IMG/VR virus record: IMGVR_UViG_3300028840_001835
DNA length: 64,000 nt
Reading direction: 5' to 3' (one strand)
From: a virus
Taxonomy: Duplodnaviria > Caudoviricetes
The notes beneath the pieces are model-generated. The model had not been told where the DNA came from. It made no database searches and saw nothing but the letters and a program-made list of their open reading frames with translations. Position 1 is the stretch's first letter, and each line of letters opens with the position of its first letter. The translations under genes and the position numbers were made by a program. Below, piece after piece: positions 40,100 through 49,889 of this stretch.

Positions 40100-40524
40100 A
40101 CCTTTTTCTTGAACATATCAAACTTTTTATTAAATATCTTGATCTCATCTTGCCATTTATCATTAAGCTCCTTGCCCGCCTTAGTAAGATGGATGAGCTC
40201 CTTTATACAGTTGATTGGAATGGAATCTGGAAAATGGTTAACCTTTAATTTTGCCAACTCACCAAGATCCTTATCGTCCTTGAATAACAAGGCCTTCTCC
40301 TTCTTAGTGATGACCTCAAGCACATCACCCAATCTGGATGTAAGAAACTTCTTTTTATACATGATGTTTGGCACCTTATCTATCTTATAACAGACAGCAA
40401 TCTCCGTCATTGAGCTTGACTCCAACTTTAGATCGGTACCTACCAGATCAATGTACATCCGTTTACAGATGATTGTATATTTGGGCATTAGACCTCTCTC
40501 TTTGTGCCATGTATCCATTTGCAA
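40096..40524 (-). CDS. Family B paralog (divergent)
   Basis: ALLFKD...LAKLKVNHFP..IPI. Confidence 0.55.
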   Translation of the reverse strand: MQMDTWHKERGLMPKYTIICKRMYIDLVGTDLKLESSSMTEIAVCYKIDKVPNIMYKKKFLTSRLGDVLEVITKKEKALLFKDDKDLGELAKLKVNHFPDSIPINCIKELIHLTKAGKELNDKWQDEIKIFNKKFDMFKKKV

Positions 40525-41783
40525 GTCGGAAATCTTAGAGAGACCTTACCCTCTTTGTTTCTTGACTCCTCAAAATATTGAACAGTGATCATCTTACCAA
40601 CTATCAGTTTTGGATCGTGATAACAATTCACACGCTGTTCAATTGTGAATCCTGAGCCAACACTAACCCTCTCACCTTTATGCTCTATTATGACATTGGT
40701 CATACATTCGGTGATCTCCTGACCCTGACCCTTGATTGTATGCTGAAAAGGTCCTGTCTCAATGTCAAGCACCTTGTACTCGGCATCATAAAACTTCTTG
40801 ACCTTAAGAAGATCATTAGACCTCTTGCCCTTGTATCCACTATCCTTTCTGAGCATAAGACCCTCCCATCCTTTCTTGGCAGACTCATCCTGTAATCTGG
40901 CAAAGGACTTCTCTGTGAGTTTTTCCTGTTCAAGAAATGATATGGTCTTGAAACTCTTACCCTTAAAGGCAGACTTCAATGTCGCAAGTCTGGCACTAAG
41001 ATTTGTATTGCCTGCCTTGTTATCAAATTCATCTTCAGTGAGAACATCAAATACCTTGAACATTGGGTTCTCGATGGTGTAATCCTTCTTCCTTATCAGC
41101 TTCATGATCGACTGAAAATCCTCATCGCCGTTTTCATCCATTATACAAATCTCTCCGTCAAGGACAAAGTCTCCGCCAATGCGTAACTTCTGAAGTTCTG
41201 GAATCAGGTTATCAAGTGTATAAAAAGGTTTGCCCTTCCTTGAAAAGAACAGGAAGCCGTTACCCTTCTTCATAACTATACATCTGCAACCGTCGAGCTT
41301 TCGGCTAACCAACCAAGAACCATCAAACGTGACATGCTTGGCTGTCTTTTTATCATATGGATAAGCCAGCGCCACATCAAATGTCGGAATGGTATTTGGT
41401 AAGGCCTTGTTTATTGTAGATGAAGAAATGCCAACATTAAGATTCCTTCCAAGTATGTTCTCAATAATCTCCTGAGACTCCTCATCAAAACCGTTTAGTA
41501 AAACCTCGATCTCATTTAAGGCATCATGACCTCTAACAGACCTAGCAGATAGCCTGGATAAAAGATCCTCAACAACCTTAAAATCTTTAGGATTGTCTAT
41601 AGACCTCTTTCCGACCTCTGTGGGTTCTGGAATCTGCTTGGCATAAAAGTTCAGTTGTTTGTTATAAGTCCACTTCAGAATCTTTACAAGAACCTTATTG
41701 GAGGCGTTATCACTAAGGATCTCCTCCTTGTCTAACTTACTGGCCGTATTCTCCAGTTCGTCAAGTATATCAACTATTCTCAT
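40488..41783 (-). CDS. ATP-dependent DNA ligase (T4 gp30-like)
   Basis: SRKLDG (motif I), VLDGEI, EGLMLR, LLKVK, SLRFP. Confidence 0.95.
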   Translation of the reverse strand: MRIVDILDELENTASKLDKEEILSDNASNKVLVKILKWTYNKQLNFYAKQIPEPTEVGKRSIDNPKDFKVVEDLLSRLSARSVRGHDALNEIEVLLNGFDEESQEIIENILGRNLNVGISSSTINKALPNTIPTFDVALAYPYDKKTAKHVTFDGSWLVSRKLDGCRCIVMKKGNGFLFFSRKGKPFYTLDNLIPELQKLRIGGDFVLDGEICIMDENGDEDFQSIMKLIRKKDYTIENPMFKVFDVLTEDEFDNKAGNTNLSARLATLKSAFKGKSFKTISFLEQEKLTEKSFARLQDESAKKGWEGLMLRKDSGYKGKRSNDLLKVKKFYDAEYKVLDIETGPFQHTIKGQGQEITECMTNVIIEHKGERVSVGSGFTIEQRVNCYHDPKLIVGKMITVQYFEESRNKEGKVSLRFPTCKWIHGTKREV

Positions 41784-42322
41784 GCTTTTCTCCCGCTGAG
41801 TGCTGTGGAAAAAGTTTCATCTGTTCCGACCTTGGAGTCTTTTATAACATCGGTCAGGAACTTATCGACAAAATCCTTGGTGAACCGAAACACACTATCA
41901 TCCCCGGCCTTATCTATCTTACCTGAGATGTGCAAGGTCTCGATCTTGTTCTTCTGAATGAAGTCGACCATCATCCTTGGGGAGCTTGGTGACTGGATGG
42001 AGATATTAAATATGGGCTTTCTCGCCCTATCGCACATATCTCTCACAAACTGTTCCGGTTTTGTTATGTCATTCTCAGACCCTATGAACAGTACAGTTCC
42101 CTGGGAGTTCTCAATGTTCTGCGCAACGGCGTGCGGAAACTTCTCGGTCTTCATCTCTGTCAATCCAAAGACCTTCAGCTTGGGCTGATCACCATGCGCA
42201 GTTCTATAATCCTTTGGTATAAAACCGCCCGTCGGACAATCCTTCAAAAAAGCCGCCGCCAGAGCTCCCTGCTCTGCACCTTCCTGTCCACTATTCACAA
42301 TCTTCTTTAAACAAAGGTTCAT
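41780..42322 (-). CDS. SLOG-superfamily 'putative molybdenum carrier'-type protein
   Basis: KIVNSGQEGAEQGALAAA...TGGFIPK...NIENSQGT. Confidence 0.75.
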   Translation of the reverse strand: MNLCLKKIVNSGQEGAEQGALAAAFLKDCPTGGFIPKDYRTAHGDQPKLKVFGLTEMKTEKFPHAVAQNIENSQGTVLFIGSENDITKPEQFVRDMCDRARKPIFNISIQSPSSPRMMVDFIQKNKIETLHISGKIDKAGDDSVFRFTKDFVDKFLTDVIKDSKVGTDETFSTALSGRKA

Positions 42323-42358: not shown

Positions 42359-42386
42359 AATGTAGTAAATATTTTTACTTTGTCAA
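42359..42386 (-). promoter_or_regulatory. Sigma70-type early promoter
   Basis: TTGACA-N16-TACATT. Confidence 0.65.
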
Positions 42387-42944
42387 GTTGTTTTTTTTGA
42401 CGAATCGGTCCCTGGTCTTTTTATCCCAGGAATGAAAGTAGGTATAAAACCTCTTCTCTGAACATTGATTTGGAGAATGGAATCTCTCCTTCACCCATTC
42501 AAACCTCTCATTATCAATTAGGCCTAAACAGTACGGGTTTATAATATAAATGCAAAGTATATCGGCCAGCTCCTCATCATAGTTATCACTGGACTGTGGT
42601 GTTAGGTAACAATGTTGATTAGAAAATCCTGCCTTCCTGTATTGTTTTATTAGGTCTGTCTTATGATTTATTAGGTGGGCGTACTCATGTATAAGAACAG
42701 AGAAAAGACTATAATCCTCAGGATGCCCAATTCTAACAGGATCGTTCTCATCGAAGTTAAGTGGATTGATGTATATGTTGGTATCTTCTGGATGTTTATC
42801 GACACGGACGAATCCGAGAAACTTTGAATTAAAGTTGAATTTAATTTCAACCTTAAATGAAAGAAGGTTCCTCTTCTGGAACCTTTCTATCAGTCTGTAA
42901 GCTCTCTTATAGACCCCTGGTGTATTAACGAGTTCAATCCTCAT
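42375..42944 (-). CDS. HExxH zincin-like metallopeptidase
   Basis: LIHEYAHL with downstream DEELAD. Confidence 0.7.
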   Translation of the reverse strand: MRIELVNTPGVYKRAYRLIERFQKRNLLSFKVEIKFNFNSKFLGFVRVDKHPEDTNIYINPLNFDENDPVRIGHPEDYSLFSVLIHEYAHLINHKTDLIKQYRKAGFSNQHCYLTPQSSDNYDEELADILCIYIINPYCLGLIDNERFEWVKERFHSPNQCSEKRFYTYFHSWDKKTRDRFVKKNNLTK

Positions 42945-42956
42945 GTAACTCCCGGT

Positions 42957-43493
42957 CTATTTGGTCAGCTTCTGTATCTCCTTCCCAATGTCGATCAAGG
43001 ACTTCTTATCGAATTCCTTTTTTAGTTTCTTTTCATCAAATTTCTTCTTGGCCTTCTTTAACGCCTCTATGTATTTCTTCCAGAGCTTGTCTTTCTGCTT
43101 CGGATTTAGTTTACCAACTGTAGTTGACTCCTCAAGGGGTTCCATGTCCATAGTCATTTCCCCTTCATCTCCACCAAATACATCGGTCGTGAATATACGG
43201 AAACTCTGAGCCTCATGTCCAAACATCTGTCCTGCAGGATCGGGTCCTAAATCAAGATACTCGTCCTGATTGCCAGAGAAGGAAATGGTAATGTGGTCGA
43301 CATTCCATCTATGGTTTGTGATAAACTCAGCAAGTGTTCCCTTGGTGATACCAAGTATTTGAACAAACTCGTCAGTGGTGTATTGAACGCCCCAATCAAG
43401 GAGCTCTGCTTCCACGTTGTTATGTATCGCATCGACTATCTGTTGATGTGTAGGAGTGTTCATCTCCTCATTAAGTAGGTGCTTAAACTTCAT
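42957..43493 (-). CDS. Putative internal head protein
   Basis: MKFKHLLNEE capsid-targeting-like start; internal LEE. Confidence 0.6.
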   Translation of the reverse strand: MKFKHLLNEEMNTPTHQQIVDAIHNNVEAELLDWGVQYTTDEFVQILGITKGTLAEFITNHRWNVDHITISFSGNQDEYLDLGPDPAGQMFGHEAQSFRIFTTDVFGGDEGEMTMDMEPLEESTTVGKLNPKQKDKLWKKYIEALKKAKKKFDEKKLKKEFDKKSLIDIGKEIQKLTK

Positions 43494-43506
43494 GTATCTA
43501 CTCCTT

Positions 43507-43734
43507 TTAGTATTTCAGTAGTGCCTTTTTGAAATTGATAATTCCTTTTTGAATATCATCATAAGCCTTACTAGCTGCTTTAAAATGGCGTACCATTTTT
43601 GAATCTTCCTCTGACGCCATTTCGAATCCTGGAAGTATGTCCTCCATAAAATCAATTAGAGGATCTGCTTTCTTTTGAAAATCCTGAGCCTCTTGTTTGT
43701 TCTCACCTAAAAACTCTTTAAATGTATCTGCCAT
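43507..43734 (-). CDS. Putative internal head protein (helical)
   Basis: MADTFKEFLGE. Confidence 0.65.
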   Translation of the reverse strand: MADTFKEFLGENKQEAQDFQKKADPLIDFMEDILPGFEMASEEDSKMVRHFKAASKAYDDIQKGIINFKKALLKY

Positions 43735-43740
43735 GATATT

Positions 43741-43977
43741 CTACTCCCATTTTATTCTACCAACAACCTTCTTGAATTGAGCAAATTGTTTTTGAAGTTT
43801 CTCCCAGCTATTGTCAACTATTTTATAAATTGATCTTAGATTAGGATCCTCATCCTTATCCAGTTCAAGTTCGCCAACTATTGTATCAGCTTGCTCTGCA
43901 AAAGCAGTCCATGCCTTATCGAGTTTCTTAATATCCTCTTTGTCCTCTTTGACGAAATCTTTAAATGTGTCTGCCAT
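43741..43977 (-). CDS. Putative internal head protein (helical)
   Basis: MADTFKDFVKE; late promoter upstream. Confidence 0.65.
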   Translation of the reverse strand: MADTFKDFVKEDKEDIKKLDKAWTAFAEQADTIVGELELDKDEDPNLRSIYKIVDNSWEKLQKQFAQFKKVVGRIKWE

Positions 43978-44003
43978 AATATTCTCCTTTAGGCCTTTTC
44001 ATA

Positions 44004-44011
44004 TATTTATA
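44004..44011 (-). promoter_or_regulatory. Late promoter TATAAATA
   Basis: Exact match. Confidence 0.7.
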
Positions 44012-44014
44012 TTT

Positions 44015-44530
44015 TCAGGTGATCCCCAAGATCCTGAATATCTCGTCAATATGAATAGGTTTGTAACGGGTATTCTCTATAGAAACATTAAACCCACACC
44101 TCACATCGGGGTCCCCATTATTATGGACATGACCATAGAGCAGAATGTCACCGTGGTAATCTGGAAGGGGGAAATGGGACAGAACTATGTCCTTTTCTCT
44201 GTATCGGACTGTGATATTCTGACGGCAATTTGTCGTCAATACATCCTCACTAAATTTGCCCAATCTCTTATCGTGATTTCCGTGAAGAAAATACTTCTCG
44301 CCGTTTAGGGCTTCCCAAATCTTTTTGGCATTTGTTTTTCTTCCGAAAATAAAATCACCTAGAAAGAATATCACGTCCTCATTAGACACAGTTCTGTTCC
44401 AGTTTGCAAATAGTACGGCGTTCATCTCCTCCACGGACTTGAACGGTCTATCACAATATTCAATAATGTTTCTATGAAAAAGATGAAGATCACTTGTAAC
44501 ATAGAAACCTTTTTCATCGATCTCTACCAT
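44015..44530 (-). CDS. Calcineurin-like metallophosphoesterase
   Basis: SDLH, LGDF, GNHD, HFP, GHVH. Confidence 0.9.
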   Translation of the reverse strand: MVEIDEKGFYVTSDLHLFHRNIIEYCDRPFKSVEEMNAVLFANWNRTVSNEDVIFFLGDFIFGRKTNAKKIWEALNGEKYFLHGNHDKRLGKFSEDVLTTNCRQNITVRYREKDIVLSHFPLPDYHGDILLYGHVHNNGDPDVRCGFNVSIENTRYKPIHIDEIFRILGIT

Positions 44531-44549
44531 AAACTATCTTTCAATTGAA

Positions 44550-45542
44550 TTAGAATTCTTCCAGCATATATAGGTACTCGGCCAGGGAGCTACTCTCCTT
44601 TAGCCTGTCCTTCCTTGCTAATTCTTTTGACTTGGTGAATAGGTCTGTGATGACCTTGAACATCCTACCGTTTGATAGGTTGATTACTATACCTTCCATC
44701 TCGGAGCCCCATTTACCCGTAACGAATGAACCACGGATCTTGTTGGCAACCTTTTTCTGGAACTTTAATATCTCCGCCTTTATCTCTTTCCTCTTCTGAA
44801 CGGCAGGGCGCTTCCTAGACTTATCAAGGAGTACATCCTTGATCTTCTGTTTGTGTTTCTTCTCTATAACGTCAACCGCTTTCTTTATCTGCTTGATCTC
44901 ATTCTTTAATGTAACCTTCTTAAACACCTTTACTATGGTGTCATCAAAAATAATATTCTTATCACTAATAGCTTTTATTTCGGATATTATCTTTTTGGAT
45001 TTAGGATGCTGATGGCCCTCCCCATCCTGTACATCAATCAGTATGAACGATGCCCAGTTACCAAGTAGATCACGTTTATATTGTATTGCCACAAACTTCA
45101 CGTCCTGGGACACTGGTGTTTTAGACTTACCGTTCGGAAGATAGAATGCCTCGCAAATTATCTTTATACCCGTCGGTGTATTATACTTTCTAAGTATATC
45201 AAGTAATTTCTTAAACTTACTTAACCTCTCCAGTATATCATCATAACCTTTACTTATCTCATTGGCCGTGCCGAATTTCTTTTTGGTATAAGCAGCAAAG
45301 GCCCCTACATCAAAGACGGGGCCTGAGTGCGAGGACTCTATGAAAAACTTTCCTTTCTCATCTAGACCAAAACGTAATCCAAAACCGTCGGCCTTCTCGG
45401 TCACCGATGCAATTTCCGGTGTTATACTGGAGTCGTTCTTCTCTATGAAATTTATTATGTCAAGAAAGTCTGTGGTCTTGATCCCCATGACCTCCTTGTC
45501 CAAATGCGGGACCCCTGCCCGTTTTGTCTTTTGAATTGGCAT
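44550..45542 (-). CDS. ATP-dependent ligase-fold nucleotidyltransferase (RNA-ligase-like)
   Basis: TEKADG (KxDG), ICEAF, MEGIVI, FKVI. Confidence 0.65.
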   Translation of the reverse strand: MPIQKTKRAGVPHLDKEVMGIKTTDFLDIINFIEKNDSSITPEIASVTEKADGFGLRFGLDEKGKFFIESSHSGPVFDVGAFAAYTKKKFGTANEISKGYDDILERLSKFKKLLDILRKYNTPTGIKIICEAFYLPNGKSKTPVSQDVKFVAIQYKRDLLGNWASFILIDVQDGEGHQHPKSKKIISEIKAISDKNIIFDDTIVKVFKKVTLKNEIKQIKKAVDVIEKKHKQKIKDVLLDKSRKRPAVQKRKEIKAEILKFQKKVANKIRGSFVTGKWGSEMEGIVINLSNGRMFKVITDLFTKSKELARKDRLKESSSLAEYLYMLEEF

Positions 45543-46687
45543 TAAGTCATCCTATACTTGCTGTAGTATTCCTCGATCATTTTCTTGATCTCTGGCTCAT
45601 GTTTCTTTAGGAAAGGGAACACCTTGAGGAACTCCTTATAGGCGGCCATCTTTATGTTCTTATCCTCGGCCGGGTTGTTTCTCTCTATTCCCTGAGACCC
45701 CTTACTCCATAGTAATCTAATAAAAAGCCAGAAAATCTGCTCGACTTTTTGGACTTTAAATTCTTTCTTCATTATCTTTAAAGTCTTAGCAAATGACTTC
45801 AGGTCTCGCCTCTCTGCTCCCTTTGGCAACCTGCCAAACATGAACTCGAATATCTTTGGTATGTCCGTCACGAACTTTGCACCCTTTGATGGTATCTCTC
45901 TATAGGTAGGCAGCCCGTCGGTCTGAATGATTTTTCCCTTATCATCAAGTACAGGTTCCAGTTTCTTTCTGAAGCCCCTGTCCACACTGAACCCAAAGAA
46001 GGAAACGGTGTCTGGACGTTGGAGGCGTTTACCCTTCTTACCTACTATGGCGACCTCTCCCCGTTGTATAGAGGATGTTATGGCCCTCACAAGATACTTG
46101 ATGAATAGACCTTTAATGCCTTTCTGTATGTCTGTCCATGAGCTGGAGTGACCGAACGTTGCGAACTCTGTTGGCTCATTGTTTGAGAACTCCGTACCCT
46201 CAAAGTCGACCTGTATATACTTTATTATGTCGTGCCATTCTGGTGTAGTCTCAAGTATACCATTAAACTGAAGTCCCGCGGAGGTGAAGCCGCGCCATTT
46301 GAAGTTACCAACCTTCTTACCTTTTAAACCTTCAAGAACACTACGAAGGTCTCCCATATAGGAGACCGGAACCTGGAGATCCATATCTCCAACTTTCTTC
46401 TTAACCTTTGAAAAAGATTTCAATGGTTTGTTAAAGAACAGCCGTGTCGAGCCAGAGAATATCATACCCGAGGAGACCAGTTTCTTGAAGTCGGCCCAGA
46501 GGGGTTTCTTTGCTTTACGATTGAAGGCATCATTAAAACCCTTAAAGGAGCGCATTAGCTCCTCCTTAAGTTTCTTGAACTTAGGTTCATCTAACCTATC
46601 CATGGGTATCTTCTGAGCCTGCTCACCATCAACTATGACGTTGCCGCCCTCATTTAGTGTCATGTAGAAATCTTTAAAACTTCTCAT
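45542..46687 (-). CDS. Pol-beta-superfamily nucleotidyltransferase with capsid-targeting-like N-terminus
   Basis: FSGS...GDMDL, IQVDF; start MRSFKDF...LNE. Confidence 0.65.
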   Translation of the reverse strand: MRSFKDFYMTLNEGGNVIVDGEQAQKIPMDRLDEPKFKKLKEELMRSFKGFNDAFNRKAKKPLWADFKKLVSSGMIFSGSTRLFFNKPLKSFSKVKKKVGDMDLQVPVSYMGDLRSVLEGLKGKKVGNFKWRGFTSAGLQFNGILETTPEWHDIIKYIQVDFEGTEFSNNEPTEFATFGHSSSWTDIQKGIKGLFIKYLVRAITSSIQRGEVAIVGKKGKRLQRPDTVSFFGFSVDRGFRKKLEPVLDDKGKIIQTDGLPTYREIPSKGAKFVTDIPKIFEFMFGRLPKGAERRDLKSFAKTLKIMKKEFKVQKVEQIFWLFIRLLWSKGSQGIERNNPAEDKNIKMAAYKEFLKVFPFLKKHEPEIKKMIEEYYSKYRMT

Positions 46688-47340
46688 AGCCAGGTCTCTG
46701 CCTCCTTAACAACCTTGTTCTTCTTTAGCATGTCTCTCATATATCTCCACATGGATACATCGTAACCAGTCATCTTGATAAATGTATCCATATCATTATC
46801 GACCAGGGCCTTTCTTATCTTGGTGCCAGAGGTCTCGTTTCTCTTGACGACCATCATCTCCCCCATACCGAACTTCTTATTATTTGGATCTCGGACCCCC
46901 TTGTTCTTCTTATTATAGTTGATAAAGACCTTCCCGAACTCCTTCTTCCTGTCGCCCCCAATCAAAAACACCGGTCTGGTGATCCCTTCATTCAGAAGCT
47001 CCGTAAACATGCGCACTGGGATGGTTGCCTTCACATTCAGGAACTTCTCCTTTGTCGCCCTTTTGACTATCTCTCCCCTCTGCTCTGGTGAGAATATGTT
47101 GGCTCCATACTTACCCTTTTTCTCCGTCTTGGTGCGTAACGGGGAGACGACCATCACATTCTTGAATTTCTTCTTTGCTTCAGTAATTAGCCTTCCGTGG
47201 CCATTGGGTCCTGTCCATGGAGAGAACTTACCGAATATGACGGCGGTTGGTTCGGCCTTTTCGTCTATAACGTATCTTTTTAACGTGACCTGTTTGGTAG
47301 GGTCCTTTCTATCTTGAACCTGTATGTCTATGAGTGGCAT
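46684..47340 (-). CDS. HIGH-type cytidylyltransferase-like nucleotidyltransferase
   Basis: IFGKFSPWT..NGHGRL, IGGDR, SGTKIRKA. Confidence 0.75.
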   Translation of the reverse strand: MPLIDIQVQDRKDPTKQVTLKRYVIDEKAEPTAVIFGKFSPWTGPNGHGRLITEAKKKFKNVMVVSPLRTKTEKKGKYGANIFSPEQRGEIVKRATKEKFLNVKATIPVRMFTELLNEGITRPVFLIGGDRKKEFGKVFINYNKKNKGVRDPNNKKFGMGEMMVVKRNETSGTKIRKALVDNDMDTFIKMTGYDVSMWRYMRDMLKKNKVVKEAETWL

Positions 47341-47355
47341 CTATGTATGGGCTCC

Positions 47356-47685
47356 TTAATTCTTTTCCCCGAGCAACCAGGTCTTCTGAATGGTTTCAAA
47401 CTTTCCAGACCTCACATATACATTTGCCTTCTTTCCCCCGACAACATCCTCTGCGAACTTCTTATAGTCTATCTGTCCCATTGTCTTTGGTCTTGAACCC
47501 GGCGTAGCTCCGAGGTCCTCAAGAAATCTCTGCATTGTTGTTATGGCATCCTTTTCACTAACCTTAATGTAATTGAGCTTACCAGTCTCTGTATTTCTAA
47601 ATGACCAGCGGGACTCGTTCTTCTTTATAGTGAACACCATCCAAGGATTTCTACCCTCATAGTATGTATCTATAAATCTTCCCAT
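47356..47685 (-). CDS. Hypothetical late protein
   Basis: 109-aa ORF in late operon. Confidence 0.6.
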   Translation of the reverse strand: MGRFIDTYYEGRNPWMVFTIKKNESRWSFRNTETGKLNYIKVSEKDAITTMQRFLEDLGATPGSRPKTMGQIDYKKFAEDVVGGKKANVYVRSGKFETIQKTWLLGEKN

Positions 47686-47694
47686 GAGGCCCCC

Positions 47695-48198
47695 TTATTT
47701 CTTTAGTCCAAACGTGGCTCTCTTTCTCTTTGAGATTGCCCGTTTGATTCTGGCGGTTGCCTGCTTTGCTTTTCTCTTTATGGCGCCGAGCTTCTGAGAC
47801 TTCTTACGTTTACGAACTTCAGCGGCCTTCATTCTTACCTCTTTGGGTCTACCTGTTGAAGGGTCGAGCACCACCCTATAGCCAGGTCTATCCGATTTGA
47901 ACTTCTTGATTTTCTTCCCGCCCCGAACAACGATCTTTTTGAATAGCCGTTCATTAAGGTCGGCGTCCTCACAATCCTGCTCAGAGAACACCGCAGTTCC
48001 TTCCTCTTCCTCGATTTGATCATCGAGGATATTGGATATCTTACCAAGGGTCTTCTCAGAAAGGTTCTCATACTTCTCAATTAGTTCCTCTTCAGAAAGT
48101 TCATTCTCGACATCCTTTATAATGTTAGCCATAACATCATTAATGATCTCTTCCTCAGCCTTCGTTTCCTGGAGGTAAAATTCTTTGAAATTTCTCAT
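47695..48198 (-). CDS. Prohead core protein, T4 gp68-like
   Basis: Acidic N-half, highly basic C-half (RKRKK...KRAISKRKR...GL), MRNFKEF start. Confidence 0.55.
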   Translation of the reverse strand: MRNFKEFYLQETKAEEEIINDVMANIIKDVENELSEEELIEKYENLSEKTLGKISNILDDQIEEEEGTAVFSEQDCEDADLNERLFKKIVVRGGKKIKKFKSDRPGYRVVLDPSTGRPKEVRMKAAEVRKRKKSQKLGAIKRKAKQATARIKRAISKRKRATFGLKK

Positions 48199-48225
48199 CC
48201 TATTCTCCTTGCTAGCCTTTTTATA

Positions 48226-48233
48226 TATTTATA
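48226..48233 (-). promoter_or_regulatory. Late promoter TATAAATA
   Basis: Exact match upstream of 48198. Confidence 0.7.
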
Positions 48234-48378
48234 AAAAGAACTCTGGATGTGTAAAGTCTAATTCTCTGGGCTCATCGTCATCAGTCTCATCTCCAATCAC
48301 CTGATACTCATCCTCCATAGTCTCAAACTCGCCATCATCCGGAAAGTCCAGAAGTTCTCTATCGTGATAACCTCCCAT
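48229..48378 (-). CDS. Small highly acidic protein (49 aa)
   Basis: MGGYHDRELLDFPDDGEFETMEDEY...; SD AGGAG. Confidence 0.55.
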   Translation of the reverse strand: MGGYHDRELLDFPDDGEFETMEDEYQVIGDETDDDEPRELDFTHPEFFL

Positions 48379-48387
48379 ACATTCCTC

Positions 48388-48789
48388 CTAATCTACGACC
48401 TCAACATCATTTACATTGAATTTATGGGAGATCACCCATTTATACTTCTCCTTAAAGGGAAGAACATACACAAACTTGTCGTGCTTCTCAATGTCATCCT
48501 CATTAACCACGTCAATTAGACCCCAGTTTTTCAAACAAAAAATAATCGAGTTCTTGCGCTCGATATCTTCATCACTTATGTTATTGTAACCATTATCTCG
48601 GGTCAGTATAAACATCTCTTTAAAATGGACAATGTAATACTCCTCAAAATTCTGATAGAGGTAACATGATGGATAAAGTATCTTCTGCCGTTTGTTGGCG
48701 ATACCTATTCGTGTGAGGGTTTCTTTGATGATCTTAATGTCGGTCTTTGGTACAACCTGTACCATATGCTTAATCTCTTTCATAATCAC
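48388..48789 (-). CDS. regA: Translational repressor RegA
   Basis: KETLTRIGIA, YYIVHFKEMF, NWGLI. Confidence 0.9.
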   Translation of the reverse strand: MIMKEIKHMVQVVPKTDIKIIKETLTRIGIANKRQKILYPSCYLYQNFEEYYIVHFKEMFILTRDNGYNNISDEDIERKNSIIFCLKNWGLIDVVNEDDIEKHDKFVYVLPFKEKYKWVISHKFNVNDVEVVD

Positions 48790-48835
48790 TCACGGTTTAA
48801 ATGAACAAACTTTCGATAAAATCTCAATACAAATG

Positions 48836-48843
48836 TATTTATA
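48836..48843 (-). promoter_or_regulatory. Late promoter TATAAATA
   Basis: Exact match upstream of regA. Confidence 0.55.
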
Positions 48844-49317
48844 TTAACGCCTAGTTTTTGGCTTGGTTTTTTTCTTTGGAAGTTTTCCTTCTGCGTATTT
48901 TTTAATGTCATATCGTTTTAGAGGATTGCTAACTGTTCGTGGATATGTTACCCAAAGATGTGTTGCTTTCGGAAATAACTCATAAAATTTCTTGAAAATC
49001 TGTTGAATATTTTTTGACTTCATATTTATTTTATGCGTCCAGATGATCCTGTTATCTCCATCATAACCAAAACCGATATCAAAATCTAACTTTCGTTCCA
49101 TAAAACGATGTTCAATACTGGCGTCCCAAGCATAAAAGATTGGACGTGTTTTATCAACAATCCCGCCGCGAACCGAATCGTACAGATTATCTTTCTCTAA
49201 TTCTCTCACTTCACTTGCTGAAGGATTGACAAAAATTTCAACCGTTTGAGGGGAGCCCCACGTTGCAACCCGGACTGTCTTCATAAACTTTTCATCCAAG
49301 ATATCTCTAAATTTCAT
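48844..49317 (-). CDS. Putative virion/internal protein
   Basis: MKFRDILDE start; EIFVNPS. Confidence 0.55.
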   Translation of the reverse strand: MKFRDILDEKFMKTVRVATWGSPQTVEIFVNPSASEVRELEKDNLYDSVRGGIVDKTRPIFYAWDASIEHRFMERKLDFDIGFGYDGDNRIIWTHKINMKSKNIQQIFKKFYELFPKATHLWVTYPRTVSNPLKRYDIKKYAEGKLPKKKTKPKTRR

Positions 49318-49325
49318 ACAATACC

Positions 49326-49862
49326 TTAATTGTTAAGGACCTTGGTCGTGGACACTATGTTAAAATCATCGAAAGCAAATGTACAACTAAACTGAAGCTC
49401 CTCTGAACTTCCGAATACAAGTGATAACGAACTTAATGAAACAAGAAAACATCTATCAAATGTTAGGGTGTTTGTTTTTCTACTTTGATTGTCCAACATT
49501 ATAACACTTATCACATCAATCACTGTGTCTGATGACGCCCTTCCGTCAGCGTTATTACCGCATCCATATCTAAGTAACTTCATCCAATCAAAGAATGCCT
49601 TATAGTTCGACAAATCCTCGTCGGCGAAAAACTCTATTGTGAGCTGGGAGAGATCGTTGTTATATTTGGAGATTGGATAACGCCTCACTATGTTCATAAA
49701 CTCAGACTGTGTTAATTCTATACTGGAATCTGGTAGTGTTATCGATCTAACAAAGTTATTAAATATCTCCATATCTATCCTGGTCGTCCTGGTGTCGGGC
49801 ATTGGGATATTGGAGAACACCGCCTTAAATCGATCTGAATTTGCCTGGTTTACTGTTGACAT
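49326..49862 (-). CDS. Tail tube terminator, T4 gp3-like
   Basis: FVRSITLP, LTIEFFADEDLSNY...FDWM, FSCTF. Confidence 0.7.
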   Translation of the reverse strand: MSTVNQANSDRFKAVFSNIPMPDTRTTRIDMEIFNNFVRSITLPDSSIELTQSEFMNIVRRYPISKYNNDLSQLTIEFFADEDLSNYKAFFDWMKLLRYGCGNNADGRASSDTVIDVISVIMLDNQSRKTNTLTFDRCFLVSLSSLSLVFGSSEELQFSCTFAFDDFNIVSTTKVLNN

Positions 49863-49881: not shown

Positions 49882-49889
49882 TATTTATA
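49882..49889 (-). promoter_or_regulatory. Late promoter TATAAATA
   Basis: Exact match upstream of the gp3-like gene. Confidence 0.7.

Follow-up and report, generated by a model that had tools for sequence, protein, structure and literature searches.

Why does an uncultured T4-like phage place two nucleotidyltransferases of unrelated superfamilies, a ligase-fold protein and a phosphoesterase in one row of predicted late genes, and what do these enzymes do together? The question is raised by IMG/VR virus record IMGVR_UViG_3300028840_001835, of which a stretch of 64,000 nt (the window), part of a 202-kb contig, was analysed. The module consists of six minus-strand genes, here called A to F, that run from 48198 down to 44015. 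Also encoded in the window are RegA, a DNA ligase of T4 type, 22 tRNAs and a large cluster of glycan genes. The module had no match by DNA similarity among 50,697 phage records. Our results suggest that C, D, E and F form a late-transcribed unit whose task is to heal broken polynucleotide ends and join them again, with RNA (for instance tRNA cleaved by the host's defence nucleases) as the likeliest substrate, and that D is probably packaged in the phage head. We assign this reading a probability of about 0.55.

The layout of the module fits a single late transcription unit, as predicted from its motifs. A T4-type late promoter motif, TATAAATA, is located at 48226..48233 (minus strand), 27 nt upstream of the gene A ATG. 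C and D overlap by 4 nt, D and E overlap by 1 nt, and the remaining intergenic gaps are 9–19 nt. No minus-strand terminator-like site and no convincing sigma-70-like site were found inside the module. The next TATAAATA motif (44004..44011, minus strand) lies directly after F, at the downstream end of the module, and heads two small paralogous genes whose starts resemble capsid-targeting peptides. In the whole window TATAAATA occurs 11 times against 4.75 expected, a count that 0/100 shuffles reached, and 10/11 matches are on the coding minus strand. An original prediction, made from the letters of the sequence, had described a late-promoter-headed row of genes here. The row was recovered, and every feature described in it was found in its place on the minus strand.

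The same prediction had named the four enzyme types correctly. Gene C (46684..47340, minus strand, 218 aa) is a HIGH-superfamily (cytidylyltransferase-like) nucleotidyltransferase that matches PF01467 CTP_transf_like (29.2 bits vs a cut-off of 21, E 1.2e-6) and phrog_395 and carries the motifs FGKFSPWTGPNGH and SGTKIR. Its homologues keep the PPAT-like TxxxGH and SxTxxR motifs, and the TxGH motif aligns with that of PPAT. H48 and S171 are invariant, and T43, G47, G49, T173 and R176 are nearly so. Gene F (44015..44530, minus strand, 171 aa) is a calcineurin-like metallophosphoesterase of family PF00149 Metallophos (34.2 bits vs a cut-off of 21.5) and phrog_547, with all four metal-binding motifs present (SDLH, GDF, GNHD and GHVH). 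The nearest solved relative of F is aq_1665 (1xm7), an uncharacterised Aquifex protein (E 3.7e-13).

Gene D (45542..46687, minus strand, 381 aa) and gene E (44550..45542, minus strand, 330 aa) were identified by fold and motif. Neither has a Pfam match at E ≤ 0.1, PF09414 included in the case of E, and NCBIfam returned nothing specific for either. D belongs to phrog_19290, a group with no function assigned. Because profile searches with D and E against PDB sequences gave chance-level matches only, both folds were taken from predicted structures. The AF2 model of D (pLDDT 90.3, with 13 disordered N-terminal residues) consists of a family-X-like palm and thumb and a C-terminal helical domain. 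Its top 50 Foldseek matches are all family X polymerases (best E 4.5e-4). In an exhaustive structural comparison, VIA Z was 7–8 for the TUTase catalytic core (about 100 residues; TUT7 7.9) and 7.0–7.5 for Pol beta (7.5), lambda, mu, TdT and complete ASFV Pol X, which aligned over 166–182 residues at 12–15% identity (ASFV Pol X over 166/176 residues, Z 7.0). The structural neighbours of D in the ESM Atlas include the palm and thumb families PF14791/PF14792, with PF01909 in 33% of members. Z values of 7–8 can reflect a mere common arrangement and are weak alone. Combined with the GS...GDxD...DxE motif, whose residues F77-S78-G79-S80, G100-D101-M-D103 and D161-F-E163 are invariant across sets of 18 and 4 sequences, they securely assign D to the Pol-beta superfamily, its shape being like that of family X. 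D shares palm and thumb topology and the GS...DxD...D signature with family X polymerases; it differs from them in its low sequence identity (10–15%), the lack of a Pfam family X palm or thumb match (PF14792/PF14791), the lack of an N-terminal HhH or 8-kDa domain in its model, and the added C-terminal helical domain.

Two narrower identities for D were rejected. D is not RlaP (PF10127), which had no match at E ≤ 0.1; at E ≤ 10, PF10127 found other genes in 2/4 related phage genomes and never D. Nor is an identity as CCA-adding or poly(A) polymerase supported, CCA-type chemistry having been named in the original prediction, for no PolyA_pol or CCA family matched and the structural Z values (5.6–6.3) were not above those of other Pol-beta enzymes. 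Among 1.84 billion representatives the D family comprises 747 clusters at 50% identity (E ≤ 1e-3). Its neighbours in the ESM Atlas and BFVD are viral and unnamed, as was every close match in the BFVD fold search. D apparently represents an uncharacterised, virus-only Pol-beta family.

Some members of this family are very large. Giant proteins of 1,400–2,100 aa (L037:1808-7564 and L047:1161-6026; P0094, P0098 and P0151) start with a D domain, often right after a short propeptide that ends in L-x-E directly before GGN. They continue with a ligase, HD_4, Amidoligase_2, DUF6934 or second NTP_transf_2 domain and resemble the 'polyvalent proteins', which phages are thought to inject. Pfam searches of six giant D-containing proteins found scattered extras only (Amidoligase_2, DUF6934, HD_4 and a second NTP_transf_2). 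In Campylobacter phage CP220 (L001) and Xanthomonas phage BUDD (L003), the D homologue lies beside radical-SAM/QueE-like, queuine-tRNA-ribosyltransferase-like (7-deazaguanine pathway) and tail-fibre genes.

Gene E has an ATP-dependent polynucleotide ligase fold nearest to RNA ligases. Its AF2 model (pLDDT 88.6) matched only ATP-dependent ligases in Foldseek (E 2.8e-4). VIA Z was 10.9 for NgrRnl (195 residues, root-mean-square deviation (rmsd) 3.8), 10.0 for T4 Rnl2, 9.8 for TbREL1 and 9.2 for T4 Rnl1, vs ≤ 8.6 for DNA ligases, and the top-ranked structural matches were Rnl5, Rnl2, REL1 and Rnl1. Ligase motifs I (K50-x-D-G), III (E131), IV (E283-G284) and V (K296) are all present. K50, D52 and G53 are invariant among 16 homologues, as are E131, E283-G284 and F295-K296, and motifs IV and V can be aligned with RNA ligase 9c6l. 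E lacks an OB domain. PF09414 RNA_ligase was found, partly under the cut-off, in E homologue P0046 and in fusions of a ligase with a HIGH enzyme. Because this family is present in homologues and unmatched by E itself, E is a divergent branch outside the named Rnl families, and its predicted activity is RNA ligation.

In three relatives (L004:9860-12359, L010 and L042) the E-type ligase gene is split just after KxDG by a 372-aa DUF723 ORF (open reading frame) that is homing-endonuclease-like. L004, which has a C-D fusion, retains an 82-aa N-terminal and a 270-aa C-terminal piece of the ligase. The split may be due to an intron or a mobile insertion.

To what extent do these genes belong together? 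Six-frame ORFs of 80 D-encoding IMG/VR loci were searched with iterated profiles for each gene, and the 72 loci with distinct D proteins were counted. C was present in 27, E in 27, F in 22 and a P-loop kinase (K) in 10. At least one of these partners was found in 49/72 loci, and all partners but one were on the same strand within 5 kb. Four fusion pairings were found, C-D, C-E, D-E (906–1922 aa) and D-K. The C-D fusions, about 610 aa long, carry the C domain in front of D, and in many loci proteins of about 500–580 aa that combine RNA_ligase (PF09414) with CTP_transf_like directly adjoin D. The commonest partner and fusion mate of D is a ligase with full covalent nucleotidyltransferase motifs. 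In ESM Atlas clusters, C-type domains are joined to Zeta/AAA_33 kinases and NTP_transf_2, and also to NT5C and PAP2 phosphatases. The same-strand linkage and the multiple fusions indicate that C, D, E and F act together; they are, as judged from genome neighbourhoods, a real functional unit. A complex prediction for D with E scored 0.00, which speaks neither for nor against binding.

The kinase of the relatives points to the chemistry of this unit. Among solved structures the kinase profile best matches that of the Clostridium thermocellum Pnkp kinase domain (CthPnkp; 4GP6/4GP7, E 4e-9), the next family follows at 2e-3, and NCBIfam gave nothing specific. CthPnkp joins a kinase, a metallophosphoesterase and a ligase-type adenylyltransferase in one protein that heals broken RNA ends (PMC2190708). 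Since the relatives' kinase is nearest to CthPnkp, K, F and E would be the CthPnkp trio in separate pieces, and the RNA-repair-type chemistry that had been proposed for the locus fits. F falls in the Pfam family of the Pnkp phosphatase domain, and E aligned with Pnkp-C at Z 7.0. Unlike CthPnkp/Hen1, the phage module has separate or differently fused genes, no Hen1 methyltransferase and no kinase in the window. It adds HIGH and Pol-beta nucleotidyltransferases, and it is predicted to be late-transcribed and partly capsid-targeted.

Enzyme families and linkage together suggest the following steps. F would take off 2',3'-cyclic or 3'-phosphates, D would restore missing nucleotides at the 3'-OH, and E would close the break via a lysyl-AMP intermediate. 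The 5'-phosphate would come, in many relatives, from a CthPnkp-like kinase. Pol-beta nucleotidyltransferases beside RNA ligases are an established theme, exemplified by RlaP (PMC7824862 section 3.4.9, PMC12776372). RlaP (PF10127, including T4 NrdC.11) is a Pol-beta enzyme genetically coupled to phage RNA ligases, the same genetic niche as that of D, and it adds 1–2 nucleoside monophosphates (NMPs) to an RNA 3'-OH ahead of ligation (PMC12776372); D is proposed to do likewise. D differs from RlaP in its greater length, family-X-like thumb, extra helical domain and head-targeting propeptide.

C is regarded as an obligatory partner because it is fused elsewhere to D, the ligase or the kinase. HIGH enzymes attach an NMP to a phosphate, and in NadR, CoA synthase and PAPS synthase activation follows a standard scheme of two steps, first a kinase and then a HIGH transferase. 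By this analogy, adenylylation of a polynucleotide phosphate end by C is an attractive idea. The simplest guess is that C nucleotidylylates the phosphate end (5'-P to App-) or carries out a nucleotide cofactor step. T4 also heals and then seals RNA against anticodon nucleases, using Pnkp with Rnl1/Rnl2, and the phage studied here is T4-like with a sealer of the same RNA ligase fold (Rnl2 and Rnl1 being among the best matches of E). In T4, however, kinase and phosphatase are fused, the latter being a HAD enzyme, and there is no HIGH or family-X-like partner. The T4 repair gene products are not known to be virion proteins.

Packaging of D is suggested by its N-terminus. Codons 1–13 of D (MRSFKDFYMTLNE, 46649..46687, minus strand) are predicted to encode a capsid-targeting propeptide whose L-x-E cleavage site immediately precedes an invariant GGN. 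The T4 capsid-targeting sequence (CTS) is the first 10 residues of IPIII, MKTYQEFIAE, in which targeting depends on residues 4 and 7 and processing on residues 8 and 10; cleavage by the gp21 protease takes place behind L/I-x-E (PMC9026906, PMC8442874). The D start, MRSFKDFYMTLNE followed by GGN, resembles this peptide. Among 38 distinct GGN-bearing D homologues, 26 have extensions that end in L/I-x-E exactly at GGN, 12 start with M-GGN, and 0 show any other arrangement. The CP220 homologue, for example, starts with MKLSELMFILE directly before GGN. The L/I-x-E/GGN junction is also found between the domains of C-D and E-D fusion proteins, which suggests that these are polyproteins cut in the prohead. 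The same either/or pattern of propeptides occurs in E homologues, kinase homologues and ligase-HIGH fusions, and never in F homologues. E of this phage has no propeptide and begins exactly where those of its relatives end.

A homologue of D has been detected in virions. Gene 1-56 of Campylobacter phage vB_CcoM-IBB_35 (44.4 kDa) is 31% identical to D over 96% of the length of D (E 7e-41). Its product was among 38 proteins identified from purified virions by electrospray ionization tandem mass spectrometry, with 17% coverage (PMC3322345 Table S2). Because of the propeptide dichotomy and this virion protein, packaging of D is plausible, and to this extent the virion-packaged kit of the original prediction stands. 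D would probably enter the prohead, lose its propeptide when the prohead protease cuts behind L-N-E, and be injected together with the DNA, so that repair capacity would be ready before any phage protein is made. A precedent is Alt, an enzyme delivered from the T4 head (PMC9026906). D resembles the T4 internal proteins and Alt in its N-terminal peptide (10–13 residues across these proteins), the aromatics at positions 4 and 7, the L/I-x-E site, the late promoter motif and the cluster of small CTS-like genes. It is unlike them in that the cargo would be an enzyme of nucleic-acid repair type in place of an ADP-ribosyltransferase or restriction inhibitor, and in that cleavage and injection are predicted here.

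CTS-like starts are concentrated around the module. They were found in 7/130 window ORFs vs 1/315 internal Met positions; 6/7 of these ORFs lie within 42957-49317, and three are directly behind TATAAATA motifs. The region 42957-49317 looks like an internal-protein locus on this evidence. Besides A and D, five small minus-strand ORFs have such starts and are candidate internal or ejection proteins: the paralogues 43741-43977 (MADTFKDFVKE) and 43507-43734 (MADTFKEFLGE), and the ORFs at 42957-43493 (MKFKHLLNE), 48844-49317 (MKFRDILDE) and 6450-6722 (MDFKEYLNE). Two of the five are directly behind TATAAATA motifs.

Gene A (47695..48198, minus strand, 167 aa) has the CTS-like start MRNFKEFYLQE, an acidic N-terminal half and a very basic C-terminal tail. 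It had been called gp68-like, a description that is weakly supported. Pairwise BLASTP with T4 gp68 gave E 6e-4 over 40 residues, and the build is similar, with an acidic front and a basic tail ending in GL. On the other side, hhalign gave 59% probability for the basic C-terminal tail only, and gene A had no Pfam, PHROG or phage tblastn match. Gene A may encode a prohead-core or internal protein, and its likeness to gp68 is weak. Gene B (47356..47685, minus strand, 109 aa) has no assigned function and a homologue only in the closest relative, L006. In the survey of relatives' loci A was linked to D in 6 loci and B in 2; the two genes are not conserved with the module.

Is RNA the substrate? It is favoured because E is nearest to RNA ligases and lacks an OB domain, while its relatives match PF09414; because a separate T4-type DNA ligase (40488-41783, minus strand) lies 3 kb away; and because the window has 22 tRNA genes and a CCA-adding enzyme is encoded near the Vibrio phage Va1 homologue. 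A link to the interrupted tRNA-like RNAs, raised in the original prediction, found no support. The roles of C, D, E and F are predictions from families and linkage, and several observations weigh against healing and sealing of RNA by a partly packaged module. No kinase homologue was found among the ORFs of the window, and the module alone could therefore not heal 5'-OH ends. The structure of D is at least as close to template-dependent family X DNA polymerases as to RNA-specific transferases (Z 7–8 for both). The T4 RNA repair genes are early genes, and late expression is unusual for RNA repair. Campylobacter phages have D with no C, E or F nearby, and D may act independently. In the phage studied here C, E and F carry no targeting peptide, so that the capsid idea may hold for D alone, and the proposal of a whole packaged kit is unsupported here. 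The prohead protease was not found in the 64-kb window.

The family-X-like thumb of D keeps repair of DNA nicks and gaps a serious rival, although we think it unlikely. In such a kit for single-strand breaks in the phage genome, D would fill short gaps, F (with the kinase in relatives) would clean 3'-P and 5'-OH ends and E would seal, much as eukaryotic PNKP, Pol beta and ligase III do; delivered in the capsid, it would mend damage suffered in the virion or at entry. The alignments of D with Pol beta, lambda, mu, TdT and whole ASFV Pol X and its PF14791/PF14792 neighbours are consistent with this, as is a weak, sub-threshold likeness of F to ligase-associated PdeM. Both DNA and RNA are substrates of PNK-type kinases and metallophosphoesterases, T4 Pnkp and CthPnkp being examples. 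Delivery also agrees, since head-internal proteins travel with the DNA (PMC9026906). What turns the balance toward RNA is the ligase, whose best matches are RNA ligases, whose relatives match RNA_ligase and which has no DNA-ligase OB domain, together with the canonical DNA ligase 3 kb off and a D protein that lacks both the 8-kDa/HhH DNA-binding domain and a Pfam family X match. A bolder form of the RNA reading, in which the whole kit is loaded into the prohead by propeptides of its own or as polyproteins, cut at L/I-x-E and injected to mend tRNAs or the entering genome before phage expression, is distinctly improbable. There the HIGH enzyme would nucleotidylylate the polynucleotide phosphate end (5'-OH to 5'-P to App-) and so feed or bypass the ligase.

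The module might instead serve a nucleotide or cofactor pathway, which we regard as very doubtful. The HIGH enzyme, assisted by the kinase where relatives have one, would regenerate NAD+ or some other dinucleotide as NadR does; D would make or cap a signalling nucleotide, and F would break down immune signals of the host. A HIGH enzyme with a P-loop kinase is the architecture of NadR (PMC7824862 section 3.4.8). The profile of C homologues, over its N-terminal half only, matches NMNAT of the NadM/NadR type (4e-5 to 1e-3) as well as PPAT (4e-6), and C has a weak match to phrog_3462 (NMNAT, E 0.0018). These matches are about equal and only weak, and the NAD+ restoration once proposed for the locus finds no specific support in them. 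D matched cGAS-like receptors and CD-NTases at Z 5–8, and C-type domains also occur joined to the NT5C and PAP2 phosphatases. The cGAS-like alignments, however, have rmsd > 8 Å and are no better than those with family X polymerases or TUTases, and they give no specific support to the suggested decoy nucleotide signal. Moreover, a full-motif ligase is the commonest partner and fusion mate, the kinase is nearest to a polynucleotide kinase and not to ribosylnicotinamide kinase (NRK1 E 0.6), and no Nampt or PRTase partner was seen. It is highly improbable that the genes are unrelated neighbours and that the CTS likeness of D is coincidental or structural. The CTS-like motif is kept inside C-D fusions and could be a domain element, and neither A nor B shares the conservation of the module. 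Against this stand the four fusion pairings, the close same-strand linkage, the disorder of the propeptide in the D model, the D homologue in virions and a strict choice between propeptide with L/I-x-E and M-GGN, with no third class. Linkage and propeptide pattern largely refute this explanation.

Several neighbouring genes were noted in passing. A homologue of the RegA translational repressor (48388-48789, minus strand; PF01818, E 1.5e-25) has TATAAATA about 47 nt upstream of its start, and relatives L004 and L006 likewise have RegA just upstream of the module. Immediately upstream of the T4-type ATP-dependent DNA ligase is a circularly permuted gene of the YpsA/SLOG family (41780-42322, minus strand; PF12694, E 4e-19); this pair is present in L006 too. 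A late promoter motif at 49882 precedes a 178-aa ORF (49326-49862, minus strand) that lies between the glycan cluster and the module and matches Pfam PF23849 Phage_TTP_2 (tail-tube-like). A 189-aa ORF (42375-42944, minus strand) amid the genes for candidate head-internal proteins has a HEYAH (HExxH, zincin-like) motif and no family match, and may encode a small metallopeptidase.

Phage RNA ligases, PNK, calcineurin-like phosphatases, RlaP and CCA enzymes are treated in existing surveys. The Aravind-group surveys compared here, a set to which Burroughs and Aravind 2016 does not belong, and the polyvalent-protein paper contain no D-type Pol-beta family, no ligase-HIGH pairing and no capsid-delivered repair enzymes. 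Defined here are a Pol-beta family of about 750 clusters, family-X-like in shape and apparently virus-only, and a recurrent pairing of RNA ligase with HIGH nucleotidyltransferase. The sequence rule seen in D, with L/I-x-E directly before a conserved mature N-terminus vs homologues that start there, could flag head-packaged proteins in uncultured T4-like phages. Phage RNA repair as known so far, whether by T4 Pnkp and Rnl1 or by the sets of ligase, kinase, phosphatase and RlaP that jumbo phages carry, must be expressed first, and host defences that cut tRNA can block such expression. A repair set carried in the capsid, if true, would sidestep this block. It would also be a new class of cargo beside the few injected phage enzymes, Alt, virion RNA polymerases and anti-restriction proteins.

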